A program made the position numbers and the translations under genes. The notes beneath the pieces were generated by a model, which worked only from the letters and a program-made list of their open reading frames with translations, searched no databases and was not told the DNA's origin. This document shows, one piece after another, positions 5,241-7,658 of a DNA stretch of 64,000 nt (position 1 is the stretch's first letter; each line of letters begins with the position of its first letter). This DNA comes from Chromatiales bacterium. Its GTDB lineage: Bacteria; Pseudomonadota; Gammaproteobacteria; Poriferisulfidales; Oxydemutatoraceae. The stretch lies in assembly GCA_014323925.1 (NCBI GenBank), contig JACONC010000003.1, positions 73-64,072 on the forward strand, given 5' to 3'.

Positions 5241-7658
5241 TTAGTTATGCAATTTCTTTTCAACCATTAAAACATTATGCCCCACAGAGTGTGTATAAGC
5301 AATATGATCTATTATTTGTTGTGCTATATATATACCACGCCCACCCTCCTGCTGCTGATGCCCATCTTCGTGCATATCAAGCACCCACGGTTTTGAAGGA
5401 TCAAAAGCGTTACCTCTATATTCCAGCACCATAAATGCGCTATCGCCTTGCTTGGCGATATGTAATTTAATCTCCGTAGCCTGCTCCGAGACTTCGTTGT
5501 GACGAATGATATTGGATACAAACTCATCTGCGACTACACATAAATCGGCGGCTATTGGCTCTTTAATACGGTAATCCTGGCAAAATGAATCTATTAATTT
5601 CATGACCTTCCCGATTGCCTCAATATCATAACCGATGGCGATTTGGTGTTGAAAAGTTAGATTGCGCCACTCGCTAATGTCAATGCTCGTATCGTCCAGC
5701 GAGCGATTAGCAGTAATGCGCTGTCTCTCCTCACTTTCCTCTTTTAGCATCGCGCATAGTAAAGTCATATCGTCAAACTTTGTTTGGCCACGTGCAAATC
5801 GACTAACACCGGATAGAACATTCTGCACACACCCCATAGCCGACTGTGCTGTAGCCATCTCTTTATACCGGCTTAAACAGTCAAATAGCCGTTGCTCTCC
5901 GAATTCCTCCGCATTTATATTATGGGCTTCGGTGATGCCATCGCTGTACAACAGTAGTATGTCGCCACGCTTAAACTTAACTTTGTGGGTCTTATAACGG
6001 GCGTTCTCGAGCACTGCCAGTGCTACACCGTGCTGTTGATCTAACCACTGTACGCCGCTATCTTTCCCGACCATCAGCGGTGGATTGTGTCCTGCATTTG
6101 CGTAAACCAATTCACCTTGAGATAGATTGATAAGCCCATAGAATAAAGTTATAAAAGCATTTTGCTCAGTGTCCTCCTGCATCAGGAGCTGATTGATTTT
6201 TTCAAGACAGACATCAGGTTGCGGTGTATTTGCACTTTGTGCTTTGAACAAACTAAGACAAACTGACATCATAATTGCCGCCGGCATACCTTTGCCAGAC
6301 ACATCGCCGACAACCAACGCAAGGCGGTCTTGGTCTATTTTAGAAAAGTAATAAAAGTCGCCGCCAACCTCCTTAGCCGGCATAATACATGCATGGATAT
6401 CTATATCGCTGAATTGTGCTTGTCCTCTACGGTATGGTAAAAGCGACATTTGTACATCGCGCGAGATATTCATCTCGCTATTGATCCTCTCATTTTTTGC
6501 CGTAACCCGCTTGAGATCGGAAAAATACTTCTTTAATCGTTTAACTGTTTGATTTAGATTGTGCGACAGACCATTGAGTTCTAAGCAAGAATCAGTCTCT
6601 GGGAATCTGACATTCAAATCACCCGTAGCTAAAGCCTCTACTTTCCTGCCAAATGCGGAAATCGGCTTGACTATGGACTTTGAAATCACAAGTATCAATA
6701 GCAATAAACCTAAGAAGGCAATTAATACGATAATCACCTCTACTAGCTTCGCCTTATAGAGATATACCAGAGCCTCTTCGGTAGGCAATAGCACAGTGAA
6801 TTGCATATCGGGACCTAGATGGGATGATAATTGCGAGATAAATACCTGCCCTTCTCCGTCCAACGGATCCTCTATATAAGTAATATCCGGGGGCGATGGT
6901 GGCTGCCGGTTCATATTGTCTACCGGCTTTGGAATATTGATTTTATGCGACATATCAAGTAGCGATAATGCTGGTTTATCTGGGGATTTTGCATCTAATA
7001 ATAATGTTTGGCGGGTACCGTTATCTTCTAGTACGGTCAATAGTATCTTGGCCTGTTCGATTGCTTGAGTAGTGAGGGAGTTTTTAACTAGATTGTACAG
7101 CGAAACGCGCACTGCGACGATGCCATTGCTGTCGGTTAATGGAGTTTGAAAAGAAGTTATATAGCTGGTTTGCCAACTGTTTGCCTCTGACCTAATATGA
7201 CCCCAGGTGCTTCGGTGTTGAGTCTGTTGAAGGTAATGTCGGTAATTGGGGTCATCGCTATCGTCAAAGCGGCGCATTCGTAAATTGGATGGCAGATTAC
7301 CTTTTATACTACCTTCTATCACCCAGGGTTTGCGCACGATAAAAATACCATATTCTTCACCAGCAACTAAAAGGCTATCCAGTAATTCAAGAATAGTCGG
7401 CGCATTGATAGATTCTTCGCTGCGCAGGTAGGCAGTCAGCACATTAGCTAATTCCTCTATCTCCTTTACTTGGATGCTTAAGCGACCATCGGCTTGACGC
7501 GCAATACTGTTAAGATAATTATAGGTAAGTATCTTAAGTTGATCGCCAACATAAAAAAAGTTGATGATTAGCAATCCAATTACGAACAAGATAACCGGCA
7601 CACCCAAACCGCGAAGTATTTTAGAATACAGTGTTTTCATAGTCTTTGACGCAGGCAA
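5241..7658 (-). CDS. Membrane sensor with periplasmic domain, HAMP, PP2C (SpoIIE/RsbU-type) phosphatase and C-terminal RsbW/BtrW-like HATPase serine kinase (fused partner-switching regulator)
   Basis: 805 aa. TM1 ([20 protein letters not shown]), a ~250-aa extracytoplasmic domain, TM2 ([18 protein letters not shown]) and a HAMP-like linker. The PP2C region carries conserved Asp motifs (GDFYYF...[10 protein letters not shown]...YSDGITEA). The C-terminal GHKL/HATPase_c_2-like domain shows ...[13 protein letters not shown]...[13 protein letters not shown]. Confidence 0.8.

Follow-up and report, generated by a model that had tools for sequence, protein, structure and literature searches.

Three characterised dual kinase/phosphatases, HsbR of Pseudomonas aeruginosa (PA3346), CrsR of Shewanella oneidensis and SypE of Vibrio fischeri, carry a PP2C phosphatase and an RsbW-type GHKL domain in a single chain (PMC6482189, PMC8256260). 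In these proteins a phosphorelay supplies the input by way of a cytoplasmic receiver domain, the cognate STAS gene lies adjacent in each case (hsbA, crsA and sypA), and the third domain (D3, GHKL) of HsbR and CrsR binds STAS proteins and RpoS (PMC6482189). A link between partner-switching proteins and type III secretion systems (T3SSs) was already known from Bordetella and Chlamydia, and the HptB/HsbR pathway affects the T3SS in P. aeruginosa (PMC2904497). Here we analyse a gene for a membrane-anchored sensor protein with the same two cytoplasmic domains, which lies between sctL and sctN inside a T3SS operon of a Chromatiales bacterium (GenBank assembly GCA_014323925.1). The stretch analysed, called the window below, comprises 64,000 nucleotides of contig JACONC010000003.1 (positions 73 to 64,072, forward strand). 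The sensor protein has intact PP2C motifs and a tyrosine in place of the aspartate of the G1 box in its GHKL domain, and its gene has no STAS gene as a neighbor.

The sensor protein shares with HsbR and CrsR the order of PP2C followed by GHKL, but its input consists of a TM–dCache-fold–TM–HAMP arrangement (TM, transmembrane helix), its gene lacks an adjacent STAS gene, and none of the genes for HsbR, CrsR and SypE lies inside a T3SS operon. The G1 aspartate is kept in the compared REC–SpoIIE–HATPase_c_2 homologues of HsbR architecture (e.g. P0017), HsbR itself being outside the alignment. The initial annotation of this DNA had implied that the union of phosphatase and kinase in one polypeptide was a novelty, a view contradicted by HsbR, CrsR and SypE and also by Rv1364c of Mycobacterium tuberculosis (3ke6); a database search returned dozens of dCache/HAMP/REC–SpoIIE–HATPase_c_2 proteins, as well as 7TMR-linked ones. 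Rv1364c, a fusion of an RsbU-like PP2C and an RsbW-like GHKL domain, is the best structural match to the sensor protein (Foldseek with the full-length model against PDB, E 6.5e-19, 395 aligned columns), but it is cytoplasmic and actinobacterial, takes its input through a PAS domain, carries a STAS domain fused at the C-terminus and is not linked to any secretion system. The same four-part dCache–HAMP–SpoIIE–HATPase_c_2 architecture is found in P0021, P0025, P0038 and P0116, which are 22-30% identical to the sensor protein over the cytoplasmic part; these proteins differ in that Pfam recognises their dCache_1 domain and that they keep the G1 aspartate.

Among the systems tied to secretion, BtrU, BtrW and BtrV of Bordetella are likewise partner-switcher homologues connected genetically and functionally to the T3SS, BtrU being a SpoIIE-family phosphatase, and all three are required for type III secretion by a mechanism that is not known (PMC7498569, PMC8256260). 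In contrast to the sensor protein, they are three separate proteins, the btr locus stands beside the bsc genes and outside the sctL–sctN core, and they include a STAS protein, BtrV, which BtrW phosphorylates. Chlamydia RsbU, from a T3SS-dependent host-associated bacterium, is like the sensor protein a membrane sensor of the PP2C type and has a ligand-binding domain in the periplasm (PMC11619594), whereas the RsbU/RsbV1/RsbV2/RsbW system has a separate kinase, two STAS proteins, scattered genes and sigma-66 as its proposed target. SiaA of the P. aeruginosa SiaABCD pathway has a similar TM–HAMP–PP2C arrangement (NCBIfam SiaA, E 1e-14, far below cut-off; 6k4e, target-normalised TM-score 0.85), but its kinase SiaB and substrate SiaC are separate proteins encoded beside siaA, and the pathway ends in a diguanylate cyclase, through which biofilm formation is controlled. 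Compared with the literature searched, what appears to be new here is a conserved core-operon gene of this kind between sctL and sctN, a clade-specific pairing of sensor and chaperone, and the combination of a missing adjacent STAS gene with the G1 Asp-to-Tyr change.

Architecture and active sites of the sensor protein

The open frame of the sensor gene (5241..7658, minus strand) has 805 codons when counted from a TTG at 7658. The true start is almost certainly the ATG at 7638-7640, which gives a protein of 799 aa; this start was taken because the alignment of 13 orthologues, two gene callers and NCBI entry MBC6413690.1 (799 aa, recorded as 'SpoIIE family protein phosphatase [Chromatiales bacterium]') agree on an N-terminal MKTL. 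Residue numbers given here follow the 805-aa frame. The initial annotation had described two TM helices around an extracytoplasmic domain, a HAMP-like linker, a SpoIIE/PP2C phosphatase and a C-terminal GHKL domain, and this anatomy is confirmed by Pfam, in which HAMP, SpoIIE and HATPase_c_2 each score above the curated cut-off, by a hydropathy scan and by AlphaFold (Table 1). The full-length AlphaFold model (mean predicted local distance difference test score, pLDDT, 78) has the layout to be expected: a TM helix is followed by an alpha/beta domain, one long helix runs through TM2 and HAMP, and after it come PP2C and GHKL, joined by a short disordered linker.

The PP2C domain is well preserved. 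The match to SpoIIE (PF07228, E 1.1e-48) covers 188 of 192 profile positions, and the metal-binding aspartates on which the initial reading of this region depended are present in all four motifs: D434 (GGDFY), D452 (GDVSGKG), D573 (SDG) and D629/D630 (DDMT), some of them just beyond the Pfam envelope. All four are invariant across 65 aligned sequences and fall, in the alignment, on the motifs that bind metal in SpoIIE, Rv1364c, RssB and SiaA. Foldseek likewise recovered the PP2C fold, with SiaA, RssB, RsbX and SpoIIE matched at target-normalised TM-scores of 0.75-0.85. A degenerate PP2C domain was rejected because every metal-binding motif is invariant and, judged by every sequence criterion, the phosphatase should be catalytically competent.

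The C-terminal domain was read initially as a GHKL domain of the anti-sigma-factor kinase (RsbW/SpoIIAB) type, and this assignment holds. Its HATPase_c_2 match is well above the Pfam cut-off, and the nearest PDB sequence matches include RsbW (6m36). In the window protein, Pfam gave no match to the histidine-kinase profile HATPase_c (PF02518) at an E-value of 0.01 or better, and none to HisKA/DHp. A histidine-kinase catalytic (CA) domain with a DHp was rejected on these grounds and because the GHKL domain is preceded by PP2C, with only a 35-residue, poorly conserved, low-pLDDT linker between the two.

Within the GHKL domain, the N-box residues for Mg-ATP binding, E712 and N716, do not vary in the clade, nor do the G2 glycines G772-G773-x-G775, and both motifs agree with those of the comparators. 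The G1 box does not. At the position of Tyr747, where the codon was read directly as TAT, the 65-sequence alignment has Asp in 53/53 comparators (RsbW, SpoIIAB and 51 distant PP2C–GHKL fusions), and 12/12 orthologues have Tyr; the more distant clade member P0147 also has Tyr. HMMER alignment places the G1 aspartate of RsbW (6m36, 'ADEGDSFD') and of SenB (9qih, 'KDRGAGFDP') at the same position. The residues around Tyr747 vary within the clade (LEYRG, FQYHG, LKYQG, IEYPG) while the tyrosine is constant, which argues that the tyrosine itself is under selection. The domain as a whole is also under purifying selection, with a mean pairwise identity of 0.58 as compared to 0.31 for the linker. In GHKL domains the G1 aspartate contacts the adenine amino group, and the isosteric Asn is the sole tolerated change of this residue discussed in the paper concerned (bioRxiv 10.1101/2022.12.12.520123). 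As the residue here is Tyr, ATP binding, and hence kinase activity, of the domain is doubtful. Thus, of the two opposing activities that the initial annotation placed in this polypeptide, the phosphatase stands, with its Asp motifs intact, and the kinase is weakened by a G1 aspartate that is an invariant Tyr in the clade.

The periplasmic region is predicted to be a very divergent dCache fold. Its AlphaFold model has a pLDDT of 72, with a weak membrane-proximal module (pLDDT below 50 for domain-model residues 189-231), and the order of its secondary-structure elements agrees with a double PAS-like fold that is set on a long N-terminal helix and enclosed by the TM helices. Foldseek matched this model to dCache ligand-binding domains from chemoreceptors and kinases, those of PctC, PctA, Mlp37, Mlp24 and mmHK1S-Z3 (E 2e-7 to 1e-4, TM-scores 0.5-0.68). 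By sequence, Pfam dCache_1 (PF02743) gave no match for the window protein and one match, at E 0.045, among 12 orthologues. A profile of the sensor domain, searched against 1.84e9 representative proteins, returned two clade representatives and one spurious repeat protein. The latter, P0148 (6209 aa), has four matches to a 47-residue stretch of the profile (E 1.7e-14), which are probably repeat-driven and unrelated.

Position in the T3SS operon and conservation across the clade

Eleven genes from sctF to sctP share one orientation, and the sensor gene is the eighth of them (Table 1). The placement between sctL and sctN proposed at the outset is correct, with the qualification that a chaperone gene (7727-8158) intervenes after sctL. 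This order, sctF-G-I-J-K-L-CesT-sensor-sctN-O-P, is kept in six independent loci, namely the window, L081 (P0006), L082 (P0004), L085 (P0013), L086 (P0002) and L084, a TARA contig that encodes the more distant P0147, whereas the genes that flank the operon differ between loci. The operon position of the sensor gene is conserved down to ~45% identity. Full-length orthologues, at 49-97% identity, stand apart as a group of their own, since the matches that come after them are at most 36% identical and confined to the cytoplasmic half, and T3SS genes were found near the distant homologues in 0 of 80 fetched loci. Searches of genome contigs gave no matches with a single-protein query and, among the matches listed, only distant PP2C proteins with an alignment query.

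Table 1. Features of the sctF–sctP operon and of the sensor protein in the window, in the direction of transcription
Feature	Position (strand)	Basis and remarks
Promoter-like element	11500..11523 (-)	TGTTTTAT-N6-ATTTGTGnTA; upstream of sctF; resembles extended -10
sctF, needle subunit	11226..11447 (-)	Pfam; T3SS_needle_F annotated on orthologues
YscG/CdsG-like needle co-chaperone	10810..11208 (-)	NF052304, E 2.3e-5, below cut-off; weak assignment
sctI-like	10377..10808 (-)	Below Pfam cut-off, weak assignment; operon position conserved
sctJ	9483..10304 (-)	YscJ_FliF annotated on orthologues; orthology confirmed
sctK	8824..9486 (-)	YscK, E 2.6e-15
sctL, stator	8186..8827 (-)	NF005392, 201.8 bits vs cut-off 159
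CesT/YscB-type class I T3SS chaperone	7727..8158 (-)	Pfam CesT; 143 aa, pI 5.0
Sensor gene	5241..7640 (-)	Likely start ATG; 799 aa
TM helix 1	7545..7607 (-)	Residues ~18-38; hydropathy scan and AlphaFold helix
Periplasmic sensor domain	6744..7544 (-)	Residues ~39-305 (~265 residues); predicted divergent dCache fold
TM helix 2	6675..6743 (-)	Residues ~306-328; hydropathy scan and AlphaFold
HAMP	6531..6674 (-)	Pfam residues 325-376; 31.9 bits vs cut-off 25
SpoIIE/PP2C	5751..6332 (-)	Residues 443-636; Pfam PF07228, 166.2 bits vs cut-off 25
RsbW/SpoIIAB-type GHKL (HATPase_c_2)	5265..5621 (-)	Residues 680-798; PF13581, 50.6 bits vs cut-off 27.4, E 2.5e-13
Tyr747 codon (TAT)	5418..5420 (-)	G1-box position, Asp in other HATPase_c_2 domains
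sctN, ATPase	3895..5226 (-)	Pfam/NCBIfam; probable ATT start
sctO	3419..3895 (-)	YscO, E 2e-23
sctP, needle-length determinant	2637..3422 (-)	Profile match

The sensor gene is closely coupled to sctN. In L084 and L086, its stop codon and the sctN start overlap by 4 nt. For sctN in the window, the orthologous position offers no canonical start codon, and the probable start is an ATT at 5224-5226, which lies 14 nt past the sensor stop behind the Shine-Dalgarno-like GAGAGGGA and yields the 443-aa NCBI protein 'MNTGFNY…'. The open-frame call from a TTG at 5166 (423 aa) drops 20 N-terminal residues that are conserved in the 441-443-aa orthologues. The arrangement of stop and start codons predicts that the sensor gene is translationally coupled to sctN.

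In all loci, the gene directly upstream of the sensor gene encodes the 143-aa chaperone, and the two genes are separated by 86 nt in the window and by 30 to 99 nt among the orthologous loci. The initial annotation had suggested this small acidic protein as a possible STAS-like substrate. That role was rejected, since the protein is a CesT/YscB-type chaperone (CesT, PF05932, 39.2 bits vs a cut-off of 22; the YscB match is weak) and a STAS hidden Markov model (HMM, described below) gave no match to it. A profile search with the chaperone returned 20 proteins, 45-99% identical and all of them clade members, with no homologues detectable beyond the clade. Sensor, chaperone and operon position thus form a clade-specific, vertically conserved package. 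Two smaller observations concern this region: the chaperone has an invariant R76-x-K78-S79 motif, and the spacer between chaperone and sensor genes contains a weak hairpin with a poor T-tail at 7696-7714 (minus strand).

A promoter-like element, TGTTTTAT-N6-ATTTGTGnTA, occurs ~50-75 nt upstream of sctF at five loci (the window, L081, L082, L084 and L086), and its conservation would fit a single sctF–sctP transcription unit. A scan of the window found a single exact copy, in which the ATTTGTGC unit is directly repeated; the other match (38991-39014) has 3 mismatches and is within chance expectation. No sigma-54 or extracytoplasmic-function (ECF) motifs were found upstream of sctF, and sigma-28-like matches there were weak and unconserved. 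An alternative-sigma promoter was rejected, because the conserved element is a sigma-70-like extended -10; on this evidence, no one sigma factor stands out as the target of the sensor protein.

The missing STAS partner and the proposed mechanism

The apparent lack of a STAS gene nearby, remarked on in the initial annotation, was upheld by HMM and Pfam scans of the window. A STAS HMM was built from 25 STAS neighbors of distant homologues together with SpoIIAA and RsbV seeds; it matched no open reading frame (ORF) in the window and, as a positive control, picked up STAS ORFs at 33 of the 80 loci fetched for distant homologues. Searching the window with the two seeds themselves also returned nothing. 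At L001-L004, L008, L009, L014 and L015, loci from Prevotella and other metagenome-assembled genomes where the match to the sensor protein extends through the GHKL domain, a STAS gene starts within ~100 nt downstream of the fused gene. In comparison with these nearest architectural relatives, the T3SS clade departs in two linked ways, having neither an adjacent STAS gene nor the G1 aspartate.

We favor, with a probability of about one half, the reading that the sensor protein is a T3SS-dedicated sensor phosphatase of the partner-switching type, with a STAS-type partner that is encoded elsewhere and an RsbW-like domain that serves mainly for docking. The domain anatomy, the intact PP2C motifs, the G1 substitution, the conserved place in the sctF–sctP operon next to sctN and the lack of a STAS neighbor are shown by the results above; what follows on the ligand, the partner, the sense in which the T3SS is regulated and the effect of Tyr747 on ATP binding is inferred. 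The divergent periplasmic dCache domain would bind a small ligand, and the signal would pass through TM2 and HAMP to set the activity of the SpoIIE/PP2C phosphatase. The phosphatase would then dephosphorylate a phospho-Ser/Thr partner encoded outside the locus, most probably an antagonist of the STAS type. The RsbW-like GHKL domain would act mainly as an anti-sigma-like module that binds the partner or target; since the G1 Asp-to-Tyr change alters the nucleotide pocket of this domain, we propose that its kinase activity is weak, changed or lost. The output would adjust T3SS expression or secretion.

Several points weigh against this reading. Across 110 kb of the L081-L086 loci (five orthologues) and the window's own contig, the STAS HMM found no STAS gene, and a Pfam scan of the 64-kb window (ORFs of at least 100 aa that neither lie within nor overlap a larger gene, plus several shorter ones) showed no STAS, SiaC-like, sigma factor or Hanks kinase gene. 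The tie to regulation of the T3SS is drawn from operon membership and nothing else, and all clade members come from uncultured metagenome assemblies. Lastly, the invariant N-box and G2 motif argue that nucleotide binding is still selected, so that the GHKL domain may remain an active kinase.

This last point leads to a bifunctional kinase/phosphatase of the HsbR/CrsR/SypE type, in which Tyr747 would not keep the GHKL domain from binding ATP and from phosphorylating a STAS protein with a gene elsewhere in the genome, while dCache and HAMP would switch between the two modes. The invariant N-box Glu and Asn and the GGxG of G2 are as this would require, the fused architecture is that of proven bifunctional proteins (PMC6482189, PMC8256260), distant homologues of the same architecture have an adjacent STAS gene, and VanS retains ATP binding with its G1 aspartate substituted (bioRxiv 10.1101/2022.12.12.520123). 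The substitution in VanS, however, is to Asn; Asp to Tyr is not isosteric and loses the carboxylate that contacts adenine N6, and in all six loci the Tyr change coincides with the lack of an adjacent STAS gene. We consider dual activity rather unlikely.

A STAS-independent phospho-switch is less probable still, and we regard it as quite unlikely. Here PP2C would act on, and the GHKL domain dock to, a component of the T3SS itself (SctK, SctL, SctN or SctO of the sorting platform or ATPase complex, a gatekeeper, or the CesT-type chaperone or its cargo), gating secretion post-transcriptionally in the manner of the PpkA/PppA threonine phosphorylation pathway of the type VI secretion system. The idea draws on the location of the gene between sctL and sctN, coupled to the latter and always preceded by the clade-specific CesT-type chaperone, and on the lack of a nearby STAS gene. 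T3SS chaperones that act as signaling intermediates are an established principle (ExsC, CesT–CsrA), which also counts in its favor. In Bordetella, moreover, BtrU and BtrW govern the secretion step and not transcription (PMC7498569). Set against this, the evidence is purely positional, all operon genes are syntenic, so that the pairing with the chaperone adds no weight, the window has no Ser/Thr kinase to load the substrate, and no phosphosite is known in SctK, SctL, SctN or SctO. An equally doubtful version would place a STAS-independent gate in the injectisome operon, with a dCache-controlled PP2C working on a T3SS component or on a chaperone–cargo complex and a kinase-dead Tyr747 domain that only docks to SctK, SctL, SctN or the CesT-type chaperone.

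Finally, the GHKL domain might be an intramolecular regulator of PP2C with no separate target and an operon position that is a clade-specific accident without T3SS function; although RsbT, a HATPase_c_2 protein, binds and activates RsbU in this style (general knowledge; see also PMC11821858) and the multidomain full-length model permits contacts within the chain, this is very unlikely in view of an operon position kept to ~45% identity while the flanking genes differ, start and stop codons coupled with sctN, and a sensor domain and chaperone found only in this T3SS context.

As a partner switcher, the clade may be viewed as a stripped-down natural version, in which sensor, phosphatase and anti-sigma-like domain are united in one sctN-coupled protein with an altered ATP pocket and no STAS neighbor. 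If its target is a T3SS component, the clade would show where partner-switching modules touch the injectisome, and a STAS-independent gate, if real, would offer a direct handle on the long-unexplained control of the secretion step by proteins of the BtrU/BtrW type. Should the target be an ordinary STAS protein encoded elsewhere, the sensor protein would be just one more of the RsbU–RsbW fusions, set apart by where its gene lies. Control of the T3SS through a periplasmic small-molecule sensor would, if true, be a property of chemosynthetic, apparently host-associated marine bacteria.

Other features of the window and the orthologous loci

The window contains a reverse-type dsr operon (dsrA, B, E, F, H, C, M, K plus additional Fe-S/oxidoreductase genes) at 25049-33279 (plus strand), from which the organism is identified as a sulfur-oxidising gammaproteobacterium. 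The relatives' genomes measure 2.2-2.9 Mb, and this small size, together with the T3SS, suggests a host-associated chemoautotroph. Besides the dsr operon, the remainder of the window holds housekeeping genes, and a combined Rfam and tRNA scan of the window found only tRNA-Pro (46683-46759).

Near the operon in other loci, a gene for an IpgD-like inositol-phosphatase effector (PF05925) adjoins it in L084 (17170-19761, minus strand). A lone Cas6-family gene (PF09559) stands just upstream of sctF in L082 (622-1329) and L086 (5107-5823), and near the operon in L084 (19841-20527).

Four paralogues of ~350-370 aa with no Pfam match are encoded on the plus strand of the window at 1318-2367, 33829-34932, 34946-36049 and 36075-37145 (phmmer E 1e-71 to 1e-208). 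The first directly adjoins the T3SS operon, and the other three stand in tandem in a stretch of lower GC content. This family may consist of effectors; the sctF promoter-like motif was not found ahead of any of the four genes. Adjacent genes at 37503-38375 and 38382-39554 (both plus strand) each encode a protein with a Cds6_C NTF2-like C-terminal domain; TPR repeats are also present in one of the two proteins, and a YkuD L,D-transpeptidase domain in the other.

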